Assembly (NCBI GenBank): GCA_051294905.1
Contig: CM119372.1
Location: 31,188,001 to 31,252,000, forward strand
Direction: 5' to 3'
Origin: Botryllus schlosseri
Lineage: Eukaryota
Length of the DNA: 64,000 bases
Shown here: piece after piece, positions 3,001-62,086 of the stretch
Numbering within the stretch: the stretch's first letter is position 1
Layout: the number at the start of each line of letters is the position of its first letter
Position numbers and translations under genes: made by a program
The notes under the pieces: generated by a model
The model's database searches: none
Seen by the model: the letters and a program-made list of their open reading frames with translations, nothing else
What the model was told of the DNA's origin: nothing

Positions 3001-3482
3001 GCTATTATTGATATTCGAATCGCCGTCTACGCCGGCTCTGTGGCAAACTAATTACCCAAACATTACCATGCGAGTAATTCCTAGATTTTGCAAACTATTT
3101 TGACGCCTTTTTTGTTGAAAGTACGACATTCCGCCCGCAGCCTATACCCGAAAGTACGAATCATCACCGCATCCATAAGAATAACGATATATCGAAGTGG
3201 CGCTCACCGTAAACGTTGGGATTCTCTCGAATACCAGACGGCAGGTCATCACCGCAGCCTATACCCGAAAGTACGACTCGCCAACACGAGTTTTCACGGT
3301 ATATCATCACCACAGCCTATACCTGAAAGGGTGGGGTCATCACCGCGCCCATAAGAAACAATGGCAGGTCACCACCACATGGGTGGTCTAAAAGGGTGGG
3401 GTCATCACCCCGGGTTTTCAGGCAGGTCACCGCCGCACCCATAAGAGCCCCTGCCAGGTCACGAGCGATCTATACTACTACT
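1..3482 (-). mobile_element. Non-autonomous Polinton-derived element, divergent copy; one arm only, truncated by the window start
   Basis: Ends ...GATCTATACTACTACT at 3482 (AGTAGTAGT on the minus strand). Colinear over its whole length with the reverse complement of 12659-16148. Carries the same ~30-bp GTGAT/CATCAC subterminal repeats as the Polinton end at 51751. No credible ORF. Confidence 0.9.
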
Positions 3483-12658: not shown

Positions 12659-15600
12659 AGTAGTTAGTATGATCGCTGGTGACCTGGCAGGGGCTCTTAT
12701 GGGCCCGCTGGTGATGTGCCTGGAAACTCGTGTTGGTGATGGTACCCTTTTGACCCCCCCTTCCGCTCGTGATGTGCCATGTGTTCTTATGGGATCTCTG
12801 GTGATGGTACCCTTTCAGGTATAGGCTGCGTCGGTGATGTGTCGTGAAAACTCGTGTTGGTGATGATACCCTTCCAGACACCCTATCGCTCGTGATGTGC
12901 CATGTATTCTTACGGGATCTCTGGTGATGTGCCATTGTTTCTTATGGTATCTCTGGTGACCGCATCCTTTCAGTTATAGGCTGTAGCGATGTTGCGCCCG
13001 CGGATTCTTGTGTGATAATGTACTACCGTTATAGGTATAGGGATCTCTGGTGAAGTGGTGTTGAATATCAAGTATAGTAAACAGTGACGCCATTACTTAG
13101 TATGTATATTCAAAAATATTATATATGACCGATTCGAGGGAATCCCAACGTTTACGGCGAGTACGACAATGATATATCGTTATTCTTATGGACGCGGCGG
13201 TGATTCGTACTTTCGGGTATAGGCTGCGGGCGGAATGTCGTACTTTCAACAAAAAAGGCGTGAAAATAGTTTGCAAAATCTAGGAATTACTCGCATGGTA
13301 ATGTTTGGGTAATTAGATTACCACAGAGCCGGCGTAGACGGCGATTCGAATATCAACAATAGCCGCGTTCACAAACTAACACTTCAAATAGGTGTGAAAT
13401 AGTTTGCAAAACCCCGCGATCGCTGACAAGATAATGTCTCGGACATAACCATCTTTCGCGGCTTCGTGTTACAGACATGTCGATCGCTCACGCGGTGAAA
13501 TTTTAGTAAGCAGTTTGTCACAGAACTTGATTTCACTCGTAAGATTTAATAAGTAACGAATAACAGACCGCCAGTGTCGGTAACTTGAATAGCGACAAAT
13601 TGTCACTTATTTCTACTCTAACCCTAATCCTTTGTGAAGTGTACGCTTATTCAAAAAGGTGCGAAATAATTCTAAAATCCTACGATCGCGCACAAGATAA
13701 CACCTATAAGACATAACCATCTCTCGTGACTTGTGGTTACATACATCGCAATCGCTACAATGTAATATGTTGGTAGTTGGGTGCAGAACTGGATTTCACG
13801 AGTCTGATATAATAAGAATATTACCTATTAAGTAATAAGCACCGAATAACAGAACCGTCGCAGACGGCGACTTGAATATCCAAGATTTGATACTTTTCGC
13901 GATCGCTATATGTTTCACGTTGACTTTGGTTGCGTGATGCGAATCATGAGAATATTCAATCAATGTGTCAATTTGTCAACTTGAAATGAAACTCACTACA
14001 CAAACCAAGTTGATTCGTATTTGAATGTGTTGATCCGGTACAACTCTAATCCTTTGAGAAATCCATTTACCGCGATCAGTTGATTCGAACGTAACTTGAA
14101 TATTGCTGACTCCAACTTCAGCCGCATCGAATTATTCACACATTCCACGCTGCTGTTTCACACCTATAGAATCAATACCAACTAACTAAACAAGAATCAA
14201 GAATCACAAGTATGCACATACAATAATTGTATTTATTACTGAGAAATCAAACGCTTAACAAAAACACGCAACTTAGCATTTGCCAACTCTAGCATTACCA
14301 AAAAAATCCAGGTATTGTTGATTGAAAATCCTTGAGTCCTTATTATCAAAAATGTTATAGTGCGGCGTCGGAATCCATTCGCGGGATGTACTAAAGGTAA
14401 ATTTGGGTAATTCAAAATGAAATATCTCGACTTTGACATAGTCTGAATTGAAATAAATTGACAAACATGACTACCAACTTTCACCCAGTCACATTTCGAA
14501 ATTATACGCATATTGATTTGAAACAAGTCATGAAATATTACAACTATATTCGCGATCGGACTTTTCGTTTGGTAAAGATAGTTTCAGAAATACTATCACT
14601 ATGACATCTCAACATTTTAACATGTTGCCATCAACAAAAGAGTAAAATACAAAAAACCTTGGCAAGTCAATCCGTTTGTAACTCACCCAACCAAAACAAA
14701 ACGTATCCGTATGAAAAGTAGACAAGACTACGCGAGTAATCACTACAATCCAAAATCCATAGCAAGTTCGGTTGCATTCATAGTCCGCCAACTCGTATTT
14801 TTTATTAAACAGTAAAAGTCGTTACTATTCTGCAACCTAAAGTAATTACTACTCGGTGCGCGCAACTTGAGATTAACATATGTTTTGAGTATATGATATT
14901 TGAATGCCTGACTAAGGTAGTTAAGAATTCATTTCTTGCGATCGAACACCGGTGTTACATTGAAAGTTATCATGTTGTAAACATCCTTATTAACACATTG
15001 GTTTGACATACGAGATTTTGTAATAGTCGATCACGACTTGATTATTAAATTATGACGTAATTAGACCGGGGTTGTGTTGAAAGTTATTACGATACCAACA
15101 AACTTTTCAGAAACATTGTTATTAACATATTGATTTGTAAAACTAGACTTACATGTGCGAAATGTTCTTGATTTGAAAGATATTCCATGTTGGTACAAAT
15201 CACTCTGCGTTACGGATATCAGAAAATATTTTTACAAATGTAATTGTTTCCAGTAACCAAGACTAAAGATGAAACAACAATTTCGTTATTAAAACATTGA
15301 ACACCCGACGCAAAATGCTTTATCGGTCGAATTCGTGACGGCTAATTGAAACGACTACGTATAGAGTCAGTATATCACAATTTCATGTCGTTACTATTGA
15401 ATCCAGCAATTGATACAATTTGTTATCGGAGTTGTGACAGGAATTGAAACATATGCACTTTACAGAGTGTTAAAATATCACTTTTGGATATCGAGCGTCG
15501 TTCGAAGCGTGCGACCAATACTCAATTACATCCACACTCTCTGTCGTAGGCGCTAAATGTAAAATCATTACAAGGTAACACTTCCAGGCTTTGATCACCA

Positions 15601-16088
15601 CAGAAGCGATCTGGAATATCTTCACTGGGTGCACCTTATTCTACAACACTTGGGTAATATACAAAACTCATAGCGGTATTAAAATCGAAATATGTCCTAC
15701 ACTGAAATCTACAAAAATCTGTTTGTATTGTCGTTCATAGTAGTGATACCGATTTGAACCGCCTAAAATAATTGTCATCATCTAACCAGACTACTGAAAG
15801 TCGTTGTCATCACAAAAACAATTCGCCTGCCGTTTGTTAAATGTGTCCTATAGCTAGAATTATTTGTAAAACACACACACACGATCAGAGAAATTAGAAA
15901 TCTTCCTATTGTCATTCGTCAAAGTAGATGTAATTACAGTCACTAAAAGACCTCACTTGTATGTGATTGAATCCCTAGCAATTACCCCACTAAACCGGAT
16001 TCCAAAGAAATTTTACTCACTCGACGGATATGAAACAGCGTCGCGTAATCGGTGTAGATCGTTTTTCTAAAGGTAAATCATATATGTC
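12659..16088 (+). repeat. Left TIR arm (3430 bp)
   Basis: Reverse complement of 17000-20223 apart from scattered substitutions and 206 extra bp (14332-14537). Confidence 0.95.
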
Positions 16089-16182
16089 CAGCAGAAAACA
16101 ATTTTCACTCACCCGGAAAGAAACCGAAGTGTGGGTCGACATTCGATATTTTGTTTGCGAGAAATACTTTGTAATAAACACA

Positions 16183-16537
16183 CTGGAGTGGTTGAGCTTT
16201 AACATCGTCAAGCTGTCATTTGTATCGTTTAATTAACCGACATTTAGCGATTGGTGAACATACCGAACGATACACAGTCACTTCGAAATGTTCCGTTGAT
16301 CGTAATTTCCATCATCGTAATAATCGAAGTACATTTGTTTCAAATCGCTGGAGTGGTTGAGCTTCACATCATCAGACTGCCATCTGTACATCAAGAATAC
16401 ATCCGACTTGTAACTGTATCGTTTACCTAACCGAGTTGTATGCACAGTTTGATATTTAGCGATTGCTGAACATAGCACTTCGAAAGACTGCGTTGATCTC
16501 AATTCCTTTATCGTGATAATCGAAGTACATTTGTTTC
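16183..16537. repeat. Two degenerate tandem units (~165 and ~190 bp) in the central spacer
   Basis: CTGGAGTGGTTGAGCTT at 16183 and 16348; TAATCGAAGTACATTTGTTTC at 16321 and 16517; TTAGCGATTG(G/C)TGAACATA twice. Confidence 0.85.
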
Positions 16538-16999
16538 GATTTCATAAAAACCAACTTTTCTATGACATGATAAATTTTTGAAAAGTTATGCTTAGAAGAT
16601 TGGTTCATCTCGCGAAAAAATAATATACCACTCATATTGATACTGTTACTCCATTGACCGATATTTTCAAACGAGTCGATTTTCAACCGAGCAAAATTTT
16701 TACTTGAGTTGTCCCGCTTACTATATTTAAATGTAAACTCACCCGTCTATCAAAACCACAACAAACAATGATAAAAAGTACACAAGCAAACACAACAAGT
16801 TTTACTTTTGTTGGACACTAATTATTATTCCAAGCATCTCATTTCATACTAAGTGTATATGAAAGATATTCACGACACACGAAAATATTCGATATTCCAT
16901 GCTACGAACATACGCAATGATTGGTGACGCTTTCACACTATTTCGATTTAGTGTAACAAAAACAACAACCTGAGAATCCAAACAATCTTGCAAAATCAA

Positions 17000-19900
17000 G
17001 ACATATATGATTTACCTTTAGAAAAACGATCTACACCGATTACGCGACGCTGTTTCATGTCCGTCGAGTGAGTAAAATTTCTTTGGAATCCGGTTTAGTG
17101 GGGTAATTGCTAGGGATTCAATCACATACAAGTGAGGTCTTTTAGTGACTGTAATTACATCTACTTTGACGAATGACAATAGGAAGATTTCTAATTTCTC
17201 TGATCGTGTGTGTGTGTTTTACAAATAATTCTAGCTATAGGACACATTTAACAAACGGCAGGCGAATTGTTTTTGTGATGACAACGACTTTCAGTAGTCT
17301 GGTTAGATGATGACAATTATTTTAGGCGGTTCAAATCGGTATCACTACTATGAACGACAATACAAACAGATTTTTGTAGATTTCAGTGTAGGACATATTT
17401 CGATTTCAATACCGCTATGAGTTTTGTATATTACCCAAGTGTTGTAGAATAAGGTGCACCCATTGAAGATATTCCAGATCGCTTCTGTGGTGATCAAAGC
17501 CTGGAAGTGTTACCTTGTAATGATTTTACATTTAGCGCCTACGACAGAGAGTGTGGATGTAATTGAGTATTGGTCGCACGCTTCGAACGACGCTCGATAT
17601 CCAAAAGTGATATTTTAACACTCTGTAAAGTGCATATGTTTCAATTCCTGTCACAACTCCGATAACAAATTGTATCAATTGCTGGATTCAATAGTAACGA
17701 CATGAAATTGTGATATACTGACTCTATACGTAGTCGTTTCAATTAGCCGTCACGAATTCGACCAATAAAGCATTTTGCGTCGGGTGTTCAATGTTTTAAT
17801 AACGAAATTGTTGTTTCATCTTTAGTCTTGGTTACTGGAAACAATTACATTTGTAAAAATATTTTCTGATATCCGTAACGCAGAGTGATTTGTACCAACA
17901 TGGACTATCTTTCAAATCAAGAACATTTCGCACATGTAAGTCTAGTTTTACAAATCAATATGTTAATAACAATGTTTCTGAAAAGTTTGTTGGTATCGTA
18001 ATAACTTTCAACACAACCCCGGTCTAATTACGTCATAATTTAATAATCAAGTCGTGATCGACTATTACAAAATCTCGTATGTCAAACCAATGTGTTAATA
18101 AGGATGTTTACAACATGATAACTTTCAATGTAACACCGGTGTTCGATCGCAAGAAATGAATTCTTAACTACCTTAGTCAGGCATTCAAATATCATATACT
18201 CAAAACATATGTTAATCTCAAGTTGCGCGCACCGAGTAGTAATTACTTTAGGTTGCAGAATAGTAACGACTTTTACTGTTTAATAAAAAATACGAGTTGG
18301 CGGACTATGAATGCAACCGAACTTGCTATGGATTTTGGATTGTAGTGATTACTCGCGTAGTCTTGTCTACTTTTCATACGGATACTTTTTGTTTTGGTTG
18401 GGTGAGTTACAAACGGATTGACTTGCCAAGGTTTTTTGTATTTTACTCTTTTGTTGATGGCAACATGTTAAAATGTTGAGATGTCATAGTGATAGTATTT
18501 CTGAAACTATCTTTACCAAACGGAAAGTCCGATCGCGAATATAGTTGTAAGGATTTTCAATCAACAATACCTGGATTTTTTTGGTAATGCTAGAGTTGGC
18601 AAATGCTAAGTTGCGTGTTTTTGTTAAGCGTTTGATTTCTCAGTAATAAATACAATTATTGTATGTGCATACTTGTGATTCTTGATTCTTGTTTAGTTAG
18701 TTGGTATTGATTCTATAGGTGTGAAACAGCAGCGTGGAATGTGTGAATAATTCGATGCGGCTGAAGTTGGAGTCAGCAATATTCAAGTTACGTTCTAATC
18801 AACTGATCGCGGTAAATGGATTTCTCAATGGATTAGAGTTGTACCGGATCAACACATTCAAATACGAATCAACTTGGTTTGTGTAGTGAGTTTCATTTCA
18901 AGTTGACAAATTGACACATTGATTGAATATTCTCATGATTCGCATCACGCAACCAAAGTCAACGTGAAACATATAGCGATCGCGAAAAGTATCAAATCTT
19001 GGATATTCAAGTCGCCGTCTGCGACGGTTCTGTTATTCGGTGCTTATTACTTAATAGGTAATATTCTTATTATATCAGACTCGTGAAATCCAGTTCTGCA
19101 CCAAACTACCAACATATTACATTGTAGCGATAGCGATGTATGTAACCACAAGTCACGAGAGATGGTTATGTCTTATAGGTGTTATCTTGTGCGCGATCGT
19201 AGGATTTTAGAATTATTTCGCACCTTTTTGAATAAGCGTACACTTCACAAAGGATTAGGGTTAGAGTAGAAATAAGTGACAATTTGTCGCTATTCAAGTT
19301 ACCGACACTGGCGGTCTGTTATTCGTTACTTATTAAATCATACGAGTGAAATCAAGTTCTGTGACAAACTGCTTACTAAAATTTCACCGCGTGAGCGATC
19401 GACATGTCTGTAACACGAAGCCGCGAAAGATGGTTATGTCCGAGACATTATCTTGTCAGCGATCGCGGGGTTTTGCAAACTATTTCACACCTATTTGAAG
19501 TGTTAGTTTGTGAACGCGGCTATTGTTGATATTCGAATCGCCGTCTACGCCGGCCCTGTGGTAATCTAATTACCCAAACATTACCATGCGAGTAATTCCT
19601 AGATTTTGCAAACTATTTTCACGCCTTTTTTGTTGAAAGTACGACATTCCGCCCGCGGCCTATACCCGAAAGTACGAATCACCGCCGCGTCCATAAGAAT
19701 AACGATATATCATTGTCGTACTCGCCGTAAACGTTGGGATTCCCTCGAATCGGTCATATATAATATTTTTGAATATACATACTAAGTAATGGCGTCACTG
19801 TTTACTATACTTGACATTCAACACCACTTCACCAGAGATCCCTATACCTATAACGGTAGTACATTATCACACAAGAATCCGCGGGCGCAACATCGCTACA

Positions 19901-20223
19901 GCCTATAACTGAAAGGGTGCGGTCACCAGAGATACCATAAGAAACAATGGCACATCACCAGAGATGCCGTAAGAATACATGGCACATCACGAGCGATAGG
20001 GTGTCTGGAAGGGTATCATCACCAACACGAGTTTTCACGACACATCACCGACGCAGCCTATACCTGAAAGGGTACCATCACCAGAGATCCCATAAGAACA
20101 CATGGCACATCACGAGCGGAAGGGGGGGTCAAAAGGGTACCATCACCAACACGAGTTTCCAGGCACATCACCAGCGGGCCCATAAGAGCCCCTGCCAGGT
20201 CACGAGCGATCATACTAACTACT
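17000..20223 (-). repeat. Right TIR arm (3224 bp)
   Basis: Inverted copy of 12659-16088. The ORF track shows mirror-image ORFs (14609-14791 minus = 18297-18479 plus; 12657-12935 minus ~ 19947-20339 plus). Confidence 0.95.
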
Positions 20224-48143: not shown

Positions 48144-48995
48144 CTGAAAAACATATACAATACCGCATTAGTTACATATATGTGTATCAAACTATATAAA
48201 TCTTGCGAAGCAAAGCTGTAGGTTGTATGGTTGGTGACACTTATAATCGGGACCAATGCCAGCACATGACATCGGATAACTCCGGACACTATCAATACAT
48301 AAATACTTGATTAGTCAAATGATACAAAAACCAGGGTATTAAGATATCGCACGTCGAATTTATTCCGCTTCGCACTATTCGAGTTTCATTTGGAGGTAGC
48401 CAGTAACGAATTACTTCCACGTTTTCCAGATAATTCAGTAGTTTCACTACGGAGGCTGTACTTAAGGCGTCATCATCATTGGTTTATTAGCAATATTATC
48501 GGTTCAATACACCACAAAAATGCGATACAAAGAAAAGATAGGAAGTTGTCGAAGCGACATGGAGTAGTCTATTGAATCAGATACCCACCTTGGCCTAGGC
48601 AATGTAAAGAGGAGGCATGCACACTCAATGAAAAGTAAAGAAGATAGTATAAAAAGGGCAAGTAGCAAGAAATGGGGTGGCATGTCATGGAAGGCGAGAT
48701 CGATAGGTTAGTCGTGGTCCGGTAATGTTGAGGATGGACTAATTAATATTCACTGAGTTGAGTTTTATGAGTGAAATTATCAAAATACCCGCGTCAAAAT
48801 CTCCTATATCCCGGCAACGAATATGTACTCGAGAATTGAACGTATTTTGGTCATTTTGTGTGTCGCCAACATACACCCTGCCATTCCAAGTATAGATGAG
48901 TAGCCGTCATGTGTCGGGCATTTGTCATAAAAGATGTTCCTATAACCCTCCTATCATTTTCAATCTGCAGGTTATTATAGATGTCAAGATCAGAC

Positions 48996-50396
48996 CTTTA
49001 ACAAGCTCAGAGGATGTTTCCATGTATACCGCGCCAGTAGCGAATCGTCGAACCACTGACCATCGTTCCGCATGAAGACCTTCTTTATTAAAGTCCCGGA
49101 ATCTGCTAATCTCCATCTCAGCTACAAATCTCGCTGCCAGATATTCTTGAATGCTTTGGTGGCAGAAAAAGAATACGAAATCCCCTTGCATCAAACTGCG
49201 GCTGAGCAGATTTTCACCCGGAACCTTTGCCATTAAATCTTTAACGTCATCGGCGGACAGTTCAAAATGTTGTAAATCAGATATCTTGAAGACAACTCTT
49301 CCTTCTTGCATGCCTCGAAAAGACATCTCTTTCAGTTTGTTCACTACCGACGAGATGTCTTCTGATTTTCGTATGTTTTCTACGCCTTCAAGAGCTGCGA
49401 TGATCCTATCGTACAGTTCTGTGATTGTAGCCGGAGGAGGCCTACGTGGATCTTTTCCCATTACAATCGCGGTTAAAATTAGGAAGACCGGTTGGGATAT
49501 TATATGGAGCAATCGTGGCGACATCCTTTCAATTCGTTTCCAAAGGCAGACTCCGTTTTCTCCAAGAAGGGAAGTGAATAGTCCCTGTGCGTCTGGTAGA
49601 GTGAAACCATGCAGCATAATAATATCATGGGGTCTGGCTTTCTGCGGTAGCTCAGAGATCCTGAATTCCCTTGAAGTTATGAAAATTTTAACGTGCCGAA
49701 GGATATTCCGTGCTAAAATATTGTATAGGATTGTCCAGGTGCTTTCTATGTCATGATTTTTGATGGTTCGAATGTCTCTATGGTAAATATTGAACCTTGC
49801 TTGATCGAGCCCGTCAAAAAATATAACCGCATCGGATTGATTTTCAACTAACCATTTAAATGCCTGATTTTCTTCGCAATCAGTTTCGTAAAGACCACCG
49901 AAAAGAAATTTTGATGGCTTGATAAGGTTCTCGTCTTTAACATCCTTCAATTCAACATAAAGTATCATCTTCTTTTCGTTGAACAGTTTATGTATGTTTT
50001 CCCCAGAGGATAAACCCAGAGATTTTTTTACTAGTCTACGTGTAAGTGTCGTTTTACCTGATCCCGCTGACGCGACTATGGCTGTAATACCGACCGTTCC
50101 AGACGGCTGTAATTTTTCTCTCTGCCATATGGACGCCATTACCTCGTCAATTTGGATCGGTTTGTTTTCATTCTCATCCTGGTAGTTGAATCCGACTTCA
50201 TTTACCAGTTGATTTTGTACAGCTACATCTCTTTCATAGCGACCTTTGTAGTAGTGGGCAACATCAACCTTTCGCATTTGCGGGTGAACTACAAAGTCTG
50301 TCTCTTGCAGCCCGTCGAGCTTGAATTCATCAAGAATACTGACCGAAGAGCGTTCGTCAGCACTATCGTTGACACTCTTTATAAGTCTGTCGACGT
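48996..50396 (-). CDS. NACHT-domain NTPase (NLR-like innate immune receptor), large internal exon
   Basis: Walker A ASAGSGKT, Walker B VIFFDGLDQ, sensor FITSRE, winged-helix FCHQSIQEYLAA. The frame is open upstream of the annotated ATG to acceptor TTTTGTTGCAG| (50397); donor AAAG|GTCTGA at 48995. Confidence 0.92.
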
Positions 50397-50423
50397 CTGC
50401 AACAAAATATTATGCGGTTTTAA

Positions 50424-50625: not shown

Positions 50626-50896
50626 CAGTAAAAAGGTGTTCCTTGACAACCGTAGTGTGGTGATTTGTATAGTCTTTTGTATTCAAGCCATCGTGCATCA
50701 TGTAATCATTGCTTTTCTAATCATTAGTTTCCAATTCCTCTGTTACTTAAATCGCTACTGTTACTGGTACTGTTGTATTTGACGCCGAGATTTAAGTTAG
50801 TAAAAGCCAACGAAACAAGAGTCTTCTGTTTACTGGTACGACAATTTTACTAACTTAAATTGTATCTCGCTGCTTGGAGAAAGATCGCCTGTAGTA

Positions 50897-51750
50897 ATGT
50901 CTGGAGAGAAGTATATTAAAGTTCCAACGTTGGACGTGTTACCAGACTCTGCAGATAGTGTGAAGATATTCTCTCATTGGGAGCGGATGTTGAAGAGTTT
51001 AATCGAAGCTATATCTGCTCTTTCAACTGATGTAAACAAGCTCGCTATATTTTCAGGTTATTTATCACCTGAAGTCTCCTCATTTATTGAAGAAATTGAT
51101 GATTACGATGCTGCTATCACCGAGCTGCAGTCCCTTTACAAAAAAAAGAAAAACGAAGTCTACGCCCGACATCTGCTAGCAACTGCAACGCAAGAGGTTG
51201 GAGTTAACGTGTCAGAATTTTCTAGAAAACTGATGGCGTTGTCTAAAGATTGTAACTTCTTGGCCGTAAATGCTCAAAAGCATAAAGAGGAAGCTGTAAG
51301 AGACGCTTTCATCACTGGGCTGAGGTCCCCGGCAATTTGACAGAGATTACTGGAATGCGATGAACTAACTATGCAAAAAGCCTTCCAGACTGCGGACACG
51401 TTAGAAAGAGCCTAATTGTTCGCCAGCTCGTACAATGTCAACCCTCCTTCGTCTGATACCATCGCTTCTGCGGAAATCGCAGCAGTTCGGCAAAGCGATC
51501 CTGAACACGGGACAGATTTTACCGCGGCTGTAGAAAAGCCTGGAGCACCGAGATTACTGCGCAAATGCTTCTTCTGCGGCGGATCTCATGTGGCAGACAA
51601 GCCCGTTTGTCCTGCAAAGGACGTCGAATGCCTGAAATGCGGAAAAAAGGGGCATTTTGCAAAGGTATGTCGATCCCCTCGTTCATATGACATCCGAGCA
51701 ACCGCCAGCATGCTTCTAGCAGGAGTTCCAAATTGTCTCTGGCGTGAGTC
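50897..51750 (+). pseudogene. gag: Gypsy/Ty3 LTR retrotransposon gag, with two in-frame stops, cut by the Polinton insertion
   Basis: NEVYARHLLAT...RDAFITGLRSPAI*QRLLE gag motifs; zinc knuckles CFFCGGSH...CPAKD and CLKCGKKGHFAKVC. Stops at 51338-51340 and 51413-51415. A possible LTR at ~50651-50843 has no clear PBS. Confidence 0.85.
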
Positions 51751-52075
51751 AGTAGTATATACGATCGGTCGCGAACTAACGTTTTTTGCATGGGGTAGTA
51801 TAGGCGGGGTGGTGACGCGCCTGAAAACCGGGGGTGGTGATGCGCCTTTTTAGACCCCCCTCTCGGCGGTGATGCGCCATGTGTTCTTATGGATGCGGTC
51901 GTGATGCGCCATTGTGGCTTATGGATGCGGCGGTGATTCGCCGTGAAAACTCGTGGTCGTGACTCGTCTTTTTTGCTATAGGCTGCGGCGGTGATGCGCC
52001 ATGTATTCTTACGGGATCTGTGGTGACTCGCTATGTGCTCTTATGGGTGCGGTCGTGATTCGCACTTTCAACCAT
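51751..52075 (+). repeat. Polinton left terminus: subterminal array of ~22-32 bp GTGA(T/C)-core repeats (part of the TIR)
   Basis: About ten copies of (G/C)GTGA(T/C)(G/T)CG... e.g. GTGATGCGCCATGTGTTCTTATGGATGCGGTC. Full TIR length cannot be set without the right end. Confidence 0.85.
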
Positions 52076-52548
52076 CTCTCGCGTGGTGTTGAATAGTCAC
52101 CAACAATAACCGCACAAACGGAAACGTGGCTTGCAAGAGGATTAAGTAGTGCGTGCGACCTATATTCCGAATGACCTGCGCGCTGAATTATTTCCCGTCC
52201 AGCTGTGTGCTACTATCGATTATTACACTAGACCAGTCAGTGTGAAATAGTTTGATCGTAAATTATGATATATGATGTCGTAGTTTAGTCGTGTCGAATG
52301 ACCGATCGTGTTCTCTTTCCTCGCTATTGATTGCTAGCTGAATAATACTTTCAGATCGGATTATTCACACCTTCGCTGTTTCGCGCCTACAGAATAGTCT
52401 GCTGTTCACAGTCGCAACTTCATCGCGATAGCGCAATTTTCACACCTCGATCAGTAGAACAACACCGCGCTAACCCAGTTGTCGAAACACATAGGTCATA
52501 CATTTTACGTGAAATGAAATATTGTATTGTGGTATACAAATATGCAAA

Positions 52549-53160
52549 CTATTCTTTCAATTCAACAAGTCTAGTTAACGGATCGATTTTCAAGCTGCCG
52601 ACACAGTTTTTAACACGAGTGAGTTGATATTTCTTCCCGGGTACGAGCGAGGCTTTGTTCCATTGATCCAAAACCACCTCGCCAGTATCATCCTTCAATG
52701 TAAAACTGTATAATTTCAACTCCTTTCCGGCACCAGAATTGACCATCTTCTCCTCTCGAGAAACACAAGTAGCGGCGATCGAGACGTATTCATCTTTATT
52801 TCCGTATACCGATTCACAGGTCAATAATGGGTATTCTTCAGTCGTATGTCTCGATTTTCCATGCAGAGTTACTGACGAAGCCCGACCAAGTAATACAGCG
52901 GGTTTTCCAGTAAATTTATCAATTTGAACCCAACCGGATTTGACCATGAGTTTTTTTCGTTTGGTGAATGCTTTCTCAATGTTCCCGAACAAATCACGAT
53001 TGAAACACGTGAAAGATATCTCTTCGTTATTGCCATCGATGAATATACCTTTGAGATATTGGCTAACGCCACCTCTTTTGGGTGATGAGACGAATTTGAC
53101 GCCGACGTGAAAATTTGAAGTTGCTCCGACTTGCATAGTGTTGACGCTGTTCGATGCCAT
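52549..53160 (-). CDS. Tandem OB-fold, RPA/SSB-like ssDNA-binding protein
   Basis: Two OB-like repeats: FIDGNNEEISFTCFN and FTLKDDTGEVVLDQWN...LVPGKKYQLTRVK (LxDxTGxIxLxxW motif). TATAAATA at 53207-53200 favours the ATG at 53160 over 53196. Confidence 0.75.
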   Translation of the reverse strand: MASNSVNTMQVGATSNFHVGVKFVSSPKRGGVSQYLKGIFIDGNNEEISFTCFNRDLFGNIEKAFTKRKKLMVKSGWVQIDKFTGKPAVLLGRASSVTLHGKSRHTTEEYPLLTCESVYGNKDEYVSIAATCVSREEKMVNSGAGKELKLYSFTLKDDTGEVVLDQWNKASLVPGKKYQLTRVKNCVGSLKIDPLTRLVELKE

Positions 53161-53322
53161 ATCGTTTGATAAAGTGGGAGTCATCAACAAACCCATCGAT
53201 ATTTATAGAATTAGGCACGTGGTATTGAGTGAGTTAACAGTCTTTGTATAATCCTGATGACGCGCGTGAATAGACTTGGATTGAAATAAACTTTACAGGA
53301 GTTCTGTAAGAAAGGATGCCGT

Positions 53323-53676: not shown

Positions 53677-54048
53677 AACGAGTATATGTAACTATCAACT
53701 GAAAAAGTAAACCATGAGAATGACACCACAATGTGTTAAAATGGTGAAATACACCGCTCAGATTTCGAAAAAACAGATGTTGGCGGGTGCGTTTGACATG
53801 TGTGACACAATAAAATCGCCCGTTTCGCTAAACAGGAAATTCACTAAAGCGCAGTGCGCTGTGCGATTTTGAAAAACCAGATATCTGCGGCCGCGTTTTG
53901 ATCTGTGACACACTAAATACGTCCGGTTCTGAAAGTTGGAAACGCGATCGGTTCTGGGGATTACGCAGTGCGTGCGCGACCTATATTTCGAATGATCTGC
54001 GCGCCGAATTATTTTCCATCCAACCGCGTGCTACTATCGAATTAAATC

Positions 54049-54056
54049 TATAAATA
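54049..54056 (+). promoter_or_regulatory. TATA box upstream of the terminal-protein gene
   Basis: TATAAATAGCCA, 82 nt before ATG 54138; an identical 12-mer occurs at 60294. Confidence 0.65.
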
Positions 54057-54137: not shown

Positions 54138-54843
54138 ATGGCCGAGGCTCAGATAGATAATCTTGATAAATTTGGTTATGAACCAAATGCATTTGAATCG
54201 CAATTTGAAGAGAATGCGGATATCTTTGATGCGATTAATTCTGGTGATCTGATGACGTCTGATTTAAGAGTTGAAGCCACAGAACGCAACTCTACGACAA
54301 CGATCGAAATGCAACCAAACCACGCAGATATAGCGCGTCAGGTGGGGCTGAAGTCTGTGAGTCGACGCAGACGGAGTCATGTTCGCGAGGAAGAAGACAC
54401 ACCACCAGAGACAGGCGACCAATACCAAGAAGTTGTATCCCAGAACTGGTAAGTGATAAAATCATATGTAGTGAATCAGAGTCGGCGCGTGTATAATATC
54501 CGAGTCATCGATCGTGAGATACCGGATGTTTTCCGCGATATCCAAGCGATATTTTTCTCAGAGTCGACTCGTTTCAAAGTGAATTTTGCGTATGGAATCA
54601 TTTTACATAACATCGCGGCTGGGAGATTTCGGTATTTTCATGCGTCGGCGAACATCGATAGCGTATTAGAAGTCCCAGCAGCGATTACATCACTAGCTGA
54701 ATGATGAATTTGTTGAATCTTTAACGTTGGAAACGGCACTAGATGTGTTACAAGACTCTCGACCAGATACAAAATACAGGGCAGTCTGTCTGGCTAATGT
54801 ACAGTTTTACGTATACCCCACTGACGGTTTGTTGATTGGTTGA
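54138..54843 (+). pseudogene. Terminal-protein-like region (N-terminal module of Polinton pPolB) as a separate gene, with a stop at 54450 and a frameshift at ~54702
   Basis: SQNW*VIKSY...YNIR...FKVNFAYGIILHN...FRYFHASAN..., then in +1 frame DEFVESL...SRPDTKYRAVCLANVQFYVYPTDGLLIG*. These motifs are typical of the segment preceding the vOTU domain in Polinton PolBs. Confidence 0.7.
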
Positions 54844-55499
54844 GCTGATATCGAAATACGATGCCGATGTGTCTTTTCATGATCTCAATCATTTTCATAG
54901 CGACCCAAGAAAATAATCCTGTCATTGAATTTTATTGAGATGTACTTGTATATATTGTGTGTGTGGTGTTATTGGGGTTTAATTGTACATTATGTTTGTT
55001 TAATATGATTTTTTTTGTATTGTGTGTTAATGTATCATTTGTTTTCCAGGTGGATAACATTATTTCATATCTCAAGTCGGTTATGTCATTAGATTTATAT
55101 AGTTTACATATAGAGATCACATTGACACAGGGATTAAGGGTTTAATAGGTAAGTTATTCGGTGCGAATACTTTGATTTATGAATATAATTTGTTATTTAT
55201 TTATCCACCAGACAAAACAAGCGTGGGATTAAAGAATTGAAACGGTGAGTTATTACTGTGTAGAACTATTGAGCATGATGTAATGATTTTGTTGTTGAAC
55301 AGACAGAGCAAGCTCAAGTGGGATTCACAAGTCTACTGGTGAGTTATCTGTTATATTACTATGTTAGCGACATAGTTTGACGTGTTACTTGTTTAGTATA
55401 AAGATCCAAGGAAGATACCGAAAAAGAAACCCCATTGTAAGTAACAGTAGTTTAATATTCCCAAGTGTTGAATGTAGCCACGCGGTATCAATTTTACAG

Positions 55500-58400
55500 A
55501 TGACTCGACACCTTTGGAATCATGAAGAACACGCACCGCCAGAGATCGATAACCAAAAGCAACAAATTACATCTCAGATCTGGCAAGCGGTGAAATCGTA
55601 TGTAGTAAACAGTAGCCACGTGCGCAATACTAGCGTCAGCAATCGTAAGCGGTCGGATGTTTTCTAAGATACCCAATCGGTCTATCTGATCAACCCCCAG
55701 TTATTTGTATATCCTACCGATGGTTTGTTGATCGGTTGTGTCGGTATTAAACTCCCGATATGGCTTGCGAGAGCGAGATGTATCATGACATTTACACGCC
55801 GAAAGAATAATACTAAATACAAGGACAATCTGTGTGCTTTTCGCTGTATTGGTCACACGCTAGGTAAAGACACCAAAGCAATGGCCCAACAATTCACTTC
55901 GACATATGGTGTAAATGCAGAATCTGGCGTGACACTTGACATGCTGGATAATATTGAGGATTTGTTTAATGTCGCCATCTTCGTGTATACTAAGACTGAG
56001 GGTAAAGCTGTCGCACTCCGTCGTAGTACGTTTGAAGCGAAACCTGTGTACTTACATTTAGAAAATGCACACTTCTGTCTCATTACTGACATGAGGCGAT
56101 ATATGGAGAGCTATCGATGTGATGTTTGTCAAAGATTTTTTTATGAGCAGCACGAATTGACCAGACACAAATGTACAACAGAGCCTGTTGAAGTGTTTCC
56201 CGGTGGCGTATATACACCTCCTCTGGCCATATTTGAAAAGCTTGATCTAGAAGGGATGTTTGTTCCTCACCAGCTTCGTTATTTCAAATACCGTATCGCG
56301 TTTGATATTGAGAGCATGTTCGAGAAGTGTGATATTCCAGATTCCTCCAAAACTTCGTGGGAGTGCAAACATATTCCCATTTCTGTTAGCATATCTTCTA
56401 ATGTGGAAGGGTTCTTGGAACCGTATGTAATTGTCTCGAACGGTGACCCAAACGACTTGTGTGCGGAAATGGTTGATCATTTTCATGATATTCAAAGTGA
56501 GTCATTTAGGTTGTTACAGATGGAATATCAACACTACTTGGACATGCTCGAAACTAAAATTGCCGAAATGAAAGCACTCGATCCTTCCGAGAAAAAAATA
56601 CCACTTGAACGTTTACAGGAGGAGTTTATGCGATATTTAAAACAAATCCCTGTTTTGTCGTTCAATGGTGGTCGGTATGACTTGAACTGTCTCAAAGAGT
56701 ACTTGATGGGTTTACTCGTTGACGAAAATGTGAGTGTATTGAAACGGGGTAACAACTTCCTCTCTTTGACAACCAACAGACTTAAACTTTTGGACATTGT
56801 AAATTACTTGGCACCCGGGTTCTCGTACGATGCTTATTTGAAAGCCTTCAAATGTAGCGCCGCTAAAGGTCATTTTCCGTATGAGTTTCTGACTAGTTTG
56901 GAAAAGCTGGATTATACGAGTCTACCTAGCCACGATGAGTTTTACAGCTCGCTAAAAGGTCGTAATATATCCACAGCTGAATATGAAAACTGTTTGAAGG
57001 TTTGGAATGATAACAAAATGACCACTTTACGTGATTATCTCAAATGGTACAACGCAATCGATACTCATTACTTCATTGAGGGGTTAGAAAAACAATTTCA
57101 ATCTTTCAAAAGTCAATTCAGTGTGGATATATTCAAAGAAGCTGTCTCCCTACCCGGGGTTGTATCGAGGCATCTTTTCAATAGCATTCCGCGTGATTTC
57201 ACCTTGTTCAATGATAAACACCAAGATCTGGTTTCGCTATTCAGAGACAATTTAGTAGGCGGACCGTCGGTCATTTTCCATCGATATCAAAAACAGGGTG
57301 AAACTCGAATCAAAGAAGTTTTTTATAAGGAAAACGCACAGATTACCCAACATGTAACAGGGCTGGACAGCAATTCGTTATACTTTTTTGCTTTGAGTGA
57401 ACCTAGTCCAACCGGTTTCCCGGTACATTGGCAACCACTCGATGCTGAGTGTACTAAATTCAAACCGGTGAAGACCGCACCGAAATGGGGGGAGACAGCA
57501 GCTCAATGGCTAAACTGGTATTCGTATACCCACAATGTACATGTCCACCATGCTTTTAATGGACCTGAAATCCGCGTAGGAGCTCGTAATTACCCTGCTG
57601 ATGGGTTCTATCGTAATTCAGCTGGTCAAGGGGTAATCTTGTCTTTTCTTGGATGTCATTTCCATGCACATCAGTGCAGATTTGGCTGTGATGATTTGGA
57701 ACGTCGAGAACGGACTAAACGTGTTCATGATTATTACAAAAGCCTCAATTACCAAGTCATATGTAAATGGGAATGCGACTGGCGCACGGAGAAACAGGAA
57801 AATCCTGATATTGTGCGATATCTTAATGGTATTCAACCACAATTGACTCGAGCCAAGTCTGTCACCGCACAAAAATTGATGGAGATGGTAATGACTGGTA
57901 CATTCTTCGGATGTTTATCAGTTGATATTTTTACGCCAAAACATTTACAAAGGAAGTTTGTTGAACTATGTCCTATATTCAAAAATACGATGGTGTCTCG
58001 CGAGCATTTGACAGGTCACATGAAACAGTTCGCTATTGATCGTAAATTACTCCCCAAACCCACGCGCATGTTGGTTGCTTCATACTGGGGCAAGAAAATC
58101 TTGTTGACCTCCGACTTGATCAAGTGGTATGTAGAGCATGGGTTGATTATATCCAAAATTCATGAGGCGGTCGAATTCACAAAAAAGACCTGTTTTGACA
58201 GCTTTGCGAAAAATGTCTCAGACTGTCGACGTGCTGGGGACCGCGACCCCAGCCTAGAGATCATTGCCCTAACGCAAAAATTAGCTGGAAATAGCAGTTA
58301 TGGCCGCGTCTTGATGAACCCACGTAAATTCAAACGAACGTCCTACTGTGATAAAAGCGAATTGGGCACCAATGCGAAGGATCGTTTTTTCGTGAAATGT

Positions 58401-59092
58401 GACGAATTGAACGCTGATCTATTTGAAATAACGAAGCGACCTAAAACGATCAAGTGGGGTAACTGTATTCAAGTGGGATTTTGGGTGTATAACAATGCTA
58501 AGCTCAAGATGTTGTCGTTTTTTTATGACTGCTTGTGTAAATATTTCCGTGACGAGTGCTTCATGCTATTAATGATGGCCACAGACTCCCTCTATCTTTT
58601 GCATTCAGCCTCATTCGACGATATTCTTATCCCTGAGAAAAGAGATGAATTTTATCTTGAATACGAGAACTGGTTTCCACGCTATTTTTGTGATGAGCAC
58701 CGAACTGAGTTTTTGGCTGACCCGGTTTCTTTTGATCGCTCGAGGCAGTGTTGCAAAGATGCGTATGCGTATTACCTTCGTCAACCGGGTTTGATGAAAG
58801 TGGAGTATGAAGGTGGTACATCTTTCTGCGGTCTCCAATCCAAAAATTACTTTTGCGATGGACCAAAGAAAAAATTAGCTTCCAAAGGGCTCCAGAAATC
58901 CAATCAAATTGACTTCGAAAATTTTCTGGGTGTCTTGACATCTAAGGAAGCTACGGGGGGAGTGAACAAGGGGTTTCGGTGCAGAGATGGGGTGTCTATA
59001 CGTACAAACAACAGCGTAAAACATTGTCCTATTTCTACGCCAAACGTCGAGTGCTCGAGGATGGTGTGTCAACCCTACCATTAAATGTGTAA
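55500..59092 (+). pseudogene. polB: Protein-primed family B DNA polymerase (vOTU-like protease, Zn finger, exonuclease, polymerase with VSR-like nuclease insertion); near-intact but with lesions
   Basis: DNLCAF...ENAHF (vOTU Cys/His); ExoI FDIES, ExoII FNGGRYD, ExoIII YNAID; motif A DSNSLY, motif B KLAGNSSYG, motif C MATDS. In-frame TAA at 55665. A frameshift in the G-run at 58989-58992 hides the canonical end YTYKQQRKTLSYFYAKRRVLEDGVSTLPLNV* (stop 59090-59092). Confidence 0.93.
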
Positions 59093-59689
59093 TTGTGTGT
59101 TATTGTATTTTATTTGTATATTCTGTGTGTTTGATTTACTTGTTTATTACTTGTTTATATGTTTGATTTACTTGTGTGTGGTAACGTGTCATTTGTTTTC
59201 CAGATTGATAACGCTATCTAAAGCCTGTCATGTCATTAGATTTATACACTTTACATGTAGAGATGATTACCTTGGAGTGGGAATTACCACAGTTCATGAT
59301 TCTTGACTCTACCAACAACTCGCAACACCGATGATACCCGATTGATGAAAAGCAGACCACCAAAACTTGTGCTCCGTGGTGAGGTCTATAGTTTGTTATA
59401 GAAACACTATATTTTAAAGCGTTATGACCGTATTATGAATCCTCTTATGTGATTTATTATTTTACAGCTTGGGGTCAGCTGCTTGACGACCTGAAGCGTT
59501 CGTAACACTACAACTTCCATTGACGATGAGGAACAGATGAAGATTTCATAACCCGTGGAAAATTGTTAAATCGAACTCTACTGGGATTATATATTCCACT
59601 AGAACAAGATGACTACAACAGTGGATATTCCCAACCTTGTTGATATATAAACACATACACTTTATCGAGTTTTCAATAAACAACAAACA

Positions 59690-60298
59690 ATGGAATTGAT
59701 CCACCCATTCGCGTGTATTGTGAGTGGTCCTTCAAGAAGTGGGAAGACTACTTTTGTTGCAAAGCTGATTAGGCATGCCGCATCCATGATTAAACCAAGT
59801 GTATCCAGGGTCGTATATTGTTACAATAATTATCAGGAGGTTTTCAAGACGATGCATAATGTAGAATTCCACGCTGGTCTAGATATTTTAGAAGAGTTGA
59901 AGGTTTGCTCTGAAGACACCTTGATTATAGTGGATGATTTCATGACTGAGACAGCGAAAATTGCAGACTACTTTACAAGATTTTCTCATCATTCAGCCAA
60001 GACAATTTGTTACGTCACACAGAACCTGTACCACAAGGGTAAAGGGGCACGTGACTTGAGTCTTTCAAGCTCGTATATGGTGATTTTCAAGAATCCGCGC
60101 GACCAACAGCAGATCAGTTTTCTTGGTCGACAAATGTATCCAAACTCTAGATTTTTAACAGAGGCTTATCGTGACGCTGCTAGGCAACCTCATAGTTATT
60201 TATTCCTCGATCTCACGCAAGAAGCGCCTGAAAATCGACGAGTTATGACCAATATATTTCCTGGTGAAACCATGGTGGTTTATAGCCCGATGGTATAA
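59690..60298 (+). CDS. A32/FtsK-like DNA packaging ATPase
   Basis: Walker A GPSRSGKT, Walker B LIIVDD, and TQNLY / FKNPRD / YLFLDL motifs typical of Polinton ATPases. TATATAAA at 59644-59651. Confidence 0.95.
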   Translation: MELIHPFACIVSGPSRSGKTTFVAKLIRHAASMIKPSVSRVVYCYNNYQEVFKTMHNVEFHAGLDILEELKVCSEDTLIIVDDFMTETAKIADYFTRFSHHSAKTICYVTQNLYHKGKGARDLSLSSSYMVIFKNPRDQQQISFLGRQMYPNSRFLTEAYRDAARQPHSYLFLDLTQEAPENRRVMTNIFPGETMVVYSPMV

Positions 60299-60679: not shown

Positions 60680-61080
60680 CTTCTTTCAAAAAAATCTTCA
60701 TAACTCCGAACCCGATCAACGAGGTTGAAGCTCAGAAATTGAATTTGGATATCGATAAATGTATGAGCGACATATTACAGATGAACATACCCCAAGAACG
60801 AAAATTAGCCTTATATAACGACGCACTAAATCGTTATCAAACAAAACACGACACATTGAATCAACCGATGAAAATCGATATATCAGAACAAAGGAATCTA
60901 TTTTCGGCTAGTGAGTTGGACGCACTGCGACGCCTGATCAAGGGTGAACCATCAAGGATTCCTAAACCTCACTCACCATCACCGAGTAGCCAACGAAGCA
61001 AAGTAAAGACCCAACATGCCAAGACGAAAAGTGGTCGTACACCCAAGACCCCGAGACGATACGGATGGGAGCCATACTAA
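60676..61080 (+). CDS. Polinton hypothetical protein (helical N-terminus, basic P/S/K-rich tail)
   Basis: ATGA overlap with the upstream gene; LDxxMxDIL...KLALYNDALNRY segment; overlaps the integrase start. Confidence 0.75.
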   Translation: MTSFKKIFITPNPINEVEAQKLNLDIDKCMSDILQMNIPQERKLALYNDALNRYQTKHDTLNQPMKIDISEQRNLFSASELDALRRLIKGEPSRIPKPHSPSPSSQRSKVKTQHAKTKSGRTPKTPRRYGWEPY

Positions 61081-62086
61081 ATATTTCACGCCAGGGCTAC
61101 CTGGTAGTTTCCGCGGCGCATACGTATTCTCTAGAGGGCGGAATAGAACCAAAGTCAAGGAGTTTCTTTCGAGCAAGGACGCGTACACAAAACATTTTCC
61201 CTATCGAAAGAAATTTAAGAGACCTAGGGTGATTACGTCCGGTCTCGGTGTTCAGTATCAAACCGATCTCATGCATATGCAAAATCTTTCAAAAGAAAAC
61301 GATAATTTTAAATATGTGTTGGTGACGATCGATTGTTTCAGTCGATTTTTATATCTGTATCCACTCAAGAACAAAACCTCGCAAGGTATTATTCGCGGAT
61401 TCAAGGAAATATTTAAGGATCGTATACCTCATGTTATTCAAAGTGATCAAGGTTCTGAGTTTACTAATCGTGCGTTTCAGACTTTCTTAAAAGAGAACAA
61501 TGTGCGACATTTTCATACAAATAGTGAACTGAAAGCATCGATATGCGAGCGTGTTATTCGTACTGTGAAGCAAGTGTTATACCGTTATTTCACGCATAAT
61601 AAGACTTTGAATTATGTCAGTGTCCTGTCTGAGATATGCCGGGGGTATAACACTACTTTTCACGTGGCTATAGGGTGTCCTCCAGCGGATGTTAATTATT
61701 CGAATCAAGAACAAATTTTCCATAGGTTATACGGTGACATGACCCCTAAAAAACCCAAACTAACTATCGGCACACCCGTCAGGATTTCGAAATCACGTGG
61801 TAATTTTGTAAAAAGCGCCTTGGCGAGTTGGACCGAAGAAATCTTTTTCGTATCTCAATGTCGTAAAGGTGACCCTCCTACTTATCAATTGAAAGACTAC
61901 CATGGTGAAGTTATAGACGGTCGCTTTCAGCGTGAAGAGTTACAACCAATAACTAAAAATAATAATATTTACAATATCGAAAAAATCCTGTCTACTCGCA
62001 GGAAAGGAAAGAAAACGCAATATCTTGTAAAATGGTTTGGTTATCCGTCTAAATTTAATTCTTGGGTCTCGGATTTGTATAAATAG
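61016..62086 (+). CDS. int: Retroviral-type (rve) DDE integrase with C-terminal chromodomain
   Basis: YQTDL / IQSDQGSEF / ASICER catalytic triad; YNIEKIL...YLVKWFGYPSKFNSWV chromodomain; uninterrupted. Confidence 0.96.
   Translation: MPRRKVVVHPRPRDDTDGSHTKYFTPGLPGSFRGAYVFSRGRNRTKVKEFLSSKDAYTKHFPYRKKFKRPRVITSGLGVQYQTDLMHMQNLSKENDNFKYVLVTIDCFSRFLYLYPLKNKTSQGIIRGFKEIFKDRIPHVIQSDQGSEFTNRAFQTFLKENNVRHFHTNSELKASICERVIRTVKQVLYRYFTHNKTLNYVSVLSEICRGYNTTFHVAIGCPPADVNYSNQEQIFHRLYGDMTPKKPKLTIGTPVRISKSRGNFVKSALASWTEEIFFVSQCRKGDPPTYQLKDYHGEVIDGRFQREELQPITKNNNIYNIEKILSTRRKGKKTQYLVKWFGYPSKFNSWVSDLYK

Follow-up and report, generated by a model that had tools for sequence, protein, structure and literature searches.

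The canonical protein-primed polymerase (pPolB) of polintons is a polyprotein of the layout TP–vOTU–EXO–PALM, headed by the terminal protein (TP), in the passages of bioRxiv 10.1101/2024.03.18.585575 that describe it. According to the text of PMC11161782, the split between TP and vOTU arose independently in different polinton groups, and in the polinton of the hood coral Stylophora, a coral adintovirus, TP is on a separate gene and a catalytically intact vOTU is fused to pPolB. The 2024 scenario for the origin of adenoviruses, in the passages that set it out, needs a polinton with the TP already off the polymerase and the vOTU still active, with the coral as one example (Krupovic et al. 2024). 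Here we analyze a Polinton of Botryllus schlosseri, found in a stretch of 64,000 nt (GCA_051294905.1, CM119372.1:31,188,001–31,252,000, forward strand; hereafter the window, to whose positions all coordinates refer, with features of the Polinton on the forward strand unless marked otherwise), together with its sister copies in the same genome. Both the coral polinton and the Botryllus family combine a separate TP gene with an active-type vOTU on pPolB. Whereas the coral text gives no route to this arrangement, the Botryllus copies point to one, in which the whole unit is doubled in tandem, the two copies lose opposite parts, and the polymerase keeps a TP stub; moreover, a single genome holds fused, split, and TP-less forms that recombine with one another, for which the coral text has no counterpart. 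The separate-TP layout itself is not new, since a separate TP gene with an active vOTU is already published for the coral (PMC11161782), and its function is predicted here from sequence; the route and the coexisting forms appear new. A word search of the main text of PMC11161782, outside which lies the genome map of Fig. S8, a picture, found no mention of duplication, and no paper on such a route was found in the literature searched, most subscription papers and the Repbase reports lying outside that search.

The initial annotation of the locus had noticed that the N-terminal region of PolB occurs twice, and its details recurred in our analysis: the peptides, the stops at 54450–54452, 54841–54843, and 55665–55667, and the frameshift near 54702. 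Copy A is a stand-alone TP module of 162 codons (54357–54843) that ends, after the peptide ...VYPTDGLLIG, at the fixed stop 54841–54843; in the window it is broken by the stop at 54450–54452 and the frameshift. It had been placed from 54138 on, which holds for the TP module from 54357 but not for the 73 codons before it (54138–54356), which are the first codons of another gene, joined to the module by a deletion. Copy B (55500–55736) is a 79-codon TP stub that supplies the start of the polymerase and keeps the LIG-C junction. As had been described, it continues into vOTU and polymerase without the module core, about 80 codons of which are lost (the equivalent of ~54552–54786), including the predicted priming Thr. 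The paralogy of A and B is seen between 54390–54548 and 55524–55679 (70% identity over 159 nt, E = 7e-13) and between 54802–54842 and 55698–55738 (80% identity over 41 nt). The proposed reciprocal loss stood, while the unit turned out larger than claimed: the DNA behind A (54920–55117) matches the DNA behind the PolB stop (59088–59264; 70% identity, 198 columns, E = 6e-20), and the duplication must therefore have taken in the entire transcription unit.

The remaining parts of the two units follow in order. Behind A lie a remnant of the vOTU start and a paralog of the PolB 3′ end with its GT-rich downstream region (54844–55117); the remnant is very short in the window and, in sisters, longer and decaying, reaching up to ~25 codons before the PolB 3′ region begins. 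A noncoding leader (55149–55499) has four intron-like stretches of ~60 nt, the last acceptor standing directly before the ATG of B. The vOTU domain and protein-primed PolB (55737–59084; PF03175, E = 6e-08) have a predicted catalytic Cys at 55833–55835 and His at 56070–56072; the polymerase is 40% identical to the fused homolog P0003 over 1120 aa, ending at residue 1108, and its C-terminal tail is frameshifted near 58990. The 3′ region of the PolB gene, paralogous to 54920–55117, closes the unit (59088–59264).

In the same-genome search, 40 of 227 candidates were scored, giving 91 matches that were grouped into 40 places including the window; the 40 copies are a lower bound and, the search having been seeded with a split copy, are biased to the window's form. 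Sister polymerases were compared over the first 551 codons. Three layouts were found: 25 copies are split (A and B), eight are fused, with one continuous TP–vOTU–PolB frame and no duplication, and seven have only B–PolB and are TP-less. The expectation that no sister would have a continuous TP–PolB frame was literally wrong, given the eight fused copies, but the split subfamily itself held up, and the fused copies show the ancestral state beside the split one. In all 25 split copies the stop of A is at the same codon (24 TGA, 1 TAA), and A is open in 22 of the 24 split sisters, of the other two one having an early stop near the end and one being decayed. Starting at its own ATG, the frame of B runs on uninterrupted to vOTU in all 23 split sisters having the region, none of which has the TAA at 55665, and in five of the seven TP-less copies. 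Because the sister copies are open there, the breaks at 54450, ~54702, and 55665 are private to the window, and the annotation was right to expect a fixed stop at 54841 and an open A and B elsewhere.

The B deletion junction is identical in 30 of the 32 nonfused copies, which points to a single origin, and the LIG-C junction is likewise kept in 30 of 32. An assembly artifact or a decayed one-off duplication was rejected, the split being common to 25 copies on 12 contigs. The duplication had been thought to predate the insertion, and the terminal repeats of the element, 99% alike, together with sister A segments 76–100% identical to the window, bear this out. Identical TP cores occur in four split copies, each on a different contig, and in three of these copies the 99–100% similarity starts at the element end and the flanks differ (the element end of the fourth is outside the stretch compared); three further near-identical split copies have unrelated flanks in three of three cases. 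Near-identical copies in unrelated flanks imply that the split form was mobile. The four of the seven TP-less copies that were checked also have element ends and unrelated flanks, and the TP-less copies are mutually only 85–93% alike and scattered in the stub tree; they may have moved in this state or have collapsed into it once inserted.

A copy of the leader precedes B, the fused TP–PolB, and, in 9 of the 25 split copies, A, which there has its own leader (partial in one) and its own Met. The splice-like donors of the leader are invariant (45/45, 48/48, 48/48, and 48/48) and the acceptors nearly so (44/45, 48/48, 47/48, and 48/48), around noncoding exons; the leader may be spliced in cis or offer an acceptor for trans-splicing. 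Reading the micro-exons as a coding N-terminal extension was rejected, with in-frame stops in 44 of 46 and lengths varying by non-multiples of three. The other 16 split copies, the window included, have the 73-codon fusion, whose source is the 5′ end of a 292-aa open reading frame (ORF) intact in copies L009–L011. The fusion gives A an acidic N-terminal extension and the start codon of the other gene, with a TP of 235 aa against 162 aa unfused, and A then depends on the promoter of that gene; a TATA-like box can be read from the sequence upstream of the fused A (54049–54056). Direct splicing as the origin of the fusion was rejected because the junction and the acceptor do not coincide exactly. 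The 292-aa ORF, A, and B had no Pfam match, and A had no usable match in Atlas. Which gene stands upstream of the leader varies from copy to copy (the 292-aa ORF in L009–L011, a ~105-aa ORF in L031, L034, and L040).

With an element so rich in conserved splice signals, A and B might be rejoined, by splicing of A into the end of B or by stop read-through, and the normal polyprotein would still be made. Two homologs from other lineages, P0032 and P0152, end two residues past the junction, while their cluster mate P0153 runs on into vOTU, a difference that could be an intron. We nevertheless regard rejoining as very unlikely. Read-through would hit a remnant of variable length with further stops, and one copy has TAA as its stop; 30 of the 32 nonfused copies provide B with a leader and an ATG of its own; and no A-to-B joint was seen in three RNA runs, whose coverage is low. 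Of each run 3–13% was sampled, and in these partial runs the depth was below 5 over A, B, and most of PolB, with no splice joint there; run X3 has reads in all 30 bins and may be DNA.

Selection was estimated as the ratio of nonsynonymous to synonymous substitution rates (dN/dS) by pairwise counting with a codon bootstrap and identical rows merged. The A sets exclude the broken A of the window and the decayed L046, the TP-less sets exclude the frameshifted L044, and the B and vOTU sets exclude copies whose vOTU anchor motif was unmatched. The ratio was 0.27 for stand-alone A (95% interval 0.20–0.35, n = 20) and 0.23 for the fused TP (n = 8), the intervals being optimistic as pairs share history. 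The B stub drifts faster than A, at 0.52 (0.35–0.78, n = 17), and vOTU gave 0.21 in split, 0.22 in fused, and 0.24 in TP-less copies. Within a supported clade of 11 stand-alone-only copies the ratio for A was 0.20 (0.13–0.30). The length between the module ends is constant in 23 sisters, and 10 different lengths occur just behind the stop. Judged by these substitution patterns, stand-alone A is under purifying selection (dN/dS 0.20–0.27), as the annotation had supposed.

The TP tree intermixes fused and stand-alone copies, a mixture implying that recombination is active, and the copies are mosaics. This weighs against our interpretation to the extent that the signal of purifying selection on A could be partly imported by recombination. 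Taken to its end, the argument makes A a passenger: split elements would be defective and copied with TP from fused members, and recombination would overwrite A and mimic conservation. TP-less copies with element ends suggest that such help in trans is available, and almost no RNA was found on A in the three runs sampled. Yet the low dN/dS (0.20–0.23) persists within the well-supported clade of 11 stand-alone copies, the conservation of A stops sharply at its stop codon, and split copies outnumber TP-less ones 25 to 7, though the search was seeded with a split copy. On balance we think the passenger explanation improbable. The split as gene anatomy and as a selected trait is well supported, whereas its mode of action is inferred.

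The account that we consider probable as a whole combines duplication, reciprocal loss, and a free TP priming in trans. An ancestor would have duplicated the whole polymerase transcription unit in tandem, with leader, TP, vOTU, PolB, and 3′ region. The upstream copy would then have acquired a stop where TP meets vOTU and have shed vOTU–PolB, keeping the 3′ region as a terminator, and the downstream copy would have lost the TP core in frame together with the priming Thr, a loss that the sequence displays directly. The products would be a free TP of 162 aa, or 235 aa if fused to the start of the other gene, and a polymerase with a nonpriming 79-aa stub that the intact vOTU most likely trims between LIG and C. 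The free TP would act in trans, priming synthesis by the polymerase from the terminal repeats, as the known biology of the family suggests. TP-less elements, needing a borrowed TP, could arise when the two leader copies recombine with each other or when a split element recombines with a fused one. In the 16 fusion-bearing split copies, the deletion puts A behind the promoter and ATG of the other gene and may uncouple TP from PolB expression, which makes the 73-codon fusion a plausible route to separate control of the two. An excess of TP over polymerase and its use by satellite elements, both proposed by the annotation, are conjecture. The Botryllus family shows one route to a separate TP, and one genome preserves the ancestor, the product, and the by-products together. 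Its natural fused and split proteins, 80–95% alike, lend themselves to comparing where cleavage occurs, which residue primes, and whether priming works in trans.

That A is a terminal-protein module, as first annotated, agrees both with its predicted structure and with the position of the module at the N terminus of PolB, upstream of vOTU, in the eight fused copies and in the full-length homologs P0003 and P0008. The model of A is an alpha/beta fold (pLDDT 90.7) whose best viral structural match is an adintovirus protein (E = 6.7e-4), with weaker matches to MELD-virus, bidnavirus-like, and mavirus polymerases; Y-family little-finger domains make up 9 of its best 25 PDB rows. A likeness of PRD1-like TPs to the Y-family little-finger domain is described in the relevant passages of bioRxiv 10.1101/2024.03.18.585575. 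In the passages of Krupovic et al. (2024) on the D1 domain of these TPs, it has a four- or five-stranded sheet and two helices, and the residue that links the TP covalently to the 5′ end of the DNA bears a hydroxyl group and sits close to a Gly or Pro in the loop connecting the last helix to the final strand; D1 domains have Ser or Tyr at this position, Thr being a known linking residue elsewhere. In the model of A, the R-P-D-T-K loop from the last helix to the last strand holds Thr139 of the module (54769–54771), two residues past a near-invariant Pro; the position is Ser or Thr in 79 of 80 alignment rows, and all 32 sister modules, whether stand-alone or not, have Thr there. We predict Thr139 to be the linking (priming) residue.

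This conservation also bears on a different role for the free protein, which might have been recruited chiefly to a regulatory or structural task, for example as a competitor of the fused TP or a DNA-end cap, with the B stub still of use, perhaps as a dock for the free TP or as vOTU substrate. The stub's dN/dS of 0.52 is below 1 and its LIG-C is kept in 30 of 32 nonfused copies, and A is without the helical extensions that stand-alone TPs may use to bind the polymerase, according to the passages on them in Krupovic et al. (2024). The predicted priming Thr is, however, present in every sister module, and split elements have no other TP core; the chance that such a role predominates seems to us slight.

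OTU proteases are known to cut after Gly, and the annotation took the stop of A to lie at the likely cleavage site. In pPolB the cut lies between TP and vOTU, the residue going unnamed in the passages on processing (Krupovic et al. 2024). We compared the junction across 149 representatives from other lineages, these being the best 150 of 589 matches minus the family's own; 12 have an incomplete module and 4 end early. Of the rest, 29 end within three residues of the junction and 33 end ~4 to 60 residues after it, a roughly seven-fold excess per position, with positions projected from alignments and some ends possibly introns or contig edges. The junction Gly is kept in 89 of the 100 homologs that continue for more than 10 residues versus 9 of the 29 that end there, and in one cluster three proteins that come from separate assemblies all stop at this same Gly. 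The pattern fits a cut site on which polyproteins depend but which is under looser constraint in free TPs; it lends indirect support to the annotation's placement of the stop, and the ends give a sequence-level pointer to where vOTU may cut. It also hints that free TPs are common among homologs (29 of 149); metagenome and viral scans found no DNA context for stand-alone TPs of other lineages, so this figure rests on predicted proteins.

A wider reading is possible, but we hold it only tentatively. TP release from the polymerase would be frequent and repeated in this polinton clade, about one-fifth of the homolog representatives ending at the junction and most of these without the junction Gly. 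The Botryllus family would be a live snapshot, a recombining helper network of fused, split, and TP-less elements in which TP-less Polintons and the palindromic satellites, presumed to be gene-less, are enabled by a free TP expressed from its own promoter, at a stage just before the vOTU decay proposed for the origin of adenoviruses. A sea-slug polinton family (P0022, P0157, and P0158) has a 1422-aa fused zinc-finger–TP–vOTU–PolB and a 259-aa protein ending at the junction, which may be a split or decay.

Set against the canonical pPolB as described in the passages cited above, the eight fused Botryllus copies have the same layout, fold class, Ser/Thr loop before the last strand, and Cys/His pair; the difference is that the functional TP lies outside the polyprotein in 25 copies and is absent in seven. 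The likeness to adenoviruses that the initial annotation proposed holds for the layout, a separate TP gene adjoining and upstream of the polymerase gene, but not beyond it. In the adenovirus passages of the same literature the vOTU is inactivated, its catalytic residues replaced, and the TP has large helical extensions and an insertion, whereas in Botryllus both catalytic residues of the vOTU persist (Cys and His motifs in 39 of 39 copies having the region) at an unchanged dN/dS, and the TP is minimal at 162 aa. Also unlike adenoviruses, the Botryllus element has an integrase, terminal repeats, and a target duplication. It resembles the elements with Beta-type adintovirus PolB, as described by Starrett et al. 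(2021, PMC8502044), in its divergent PolB with an N-terminal OTU domain and in being an animal element with integrase and a putative packaging ATPase; the passages of that paper on adintovirus PolB mention neither a TP gene nor splicing.

The host element itself is a Polinton of 15.3 kb, with its left end, AGTAGT, at 51751 and its right end ~3 kb past the end of the window. Polintons are 15–20 kb long, with long terminal inverted repeats and a 6-bp target duplication; here, the left repeat (51751–52418, 668 nt) matches the right end at 99% (G000:C2:31254354–31255021), and the 6-nt flanks agree at five of six positions. Along with the long repeats, a PF03175 PolB above cut-off and an rve integrase are present. 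The integrase has a chromodomain (61007–62086; PF00665, E = 3e-16; PF00385, E = 8e-09), and a putative packaging-type ATPase ORF (59651–60298) has AAA/P-loop matches and a weak one to Pox_A32 (E = 0.043). A 432-aa ORF beyond the end of the window had no Pfam match but reached an Atlas score of 0.98 to clusters with PF21738 on 14–30% of their members, a lead by which it is probably the double jelly-roll capsid protein. No maturation protease (adenain-like) was identified in the parts of the element scanned.

Several minor observations concern the element and its surroundings. The most expressed part of the stretch examined (59236–59710) lies between PolB and ATPase and has no long ORF; its reads, mostly from related copies, show a splice joint from 59378 to 59470 and poly(A) tails near 59672–59707. 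A 217-aa ORF (52549–53202, reverse strand) is covered by RNA reads in three runs, lacks a Pfam match, and by eye gives an impression of likeness to an OB-fold single-stranded DNA-binding protein. Short direct repeats (52139–52219 with 53958–54040, and 53761–53826 with 53865–53929) stand upstream of two divergent genes and are possibly promoter elements. The insertion site of the Polinton is a Gypsy-like gag region that has a zinc-knuckle motif (50804–51750), and sister L053 likewise lies within similar-looking DNA; next to the insertion is a host NACHT-domain ORF (48940–50409, reverse strand). Elsewhere in the window, a palindromic element of 7.6 kb (12659–20223; partial relative at ~660–3480) has arms 99–100% complementary, a 911-nt loop, AGTAGT ends like those of the Polinton, and a 6-nt target duplication. 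It is a candidate satellite, which would need TP and polymerase in trans.
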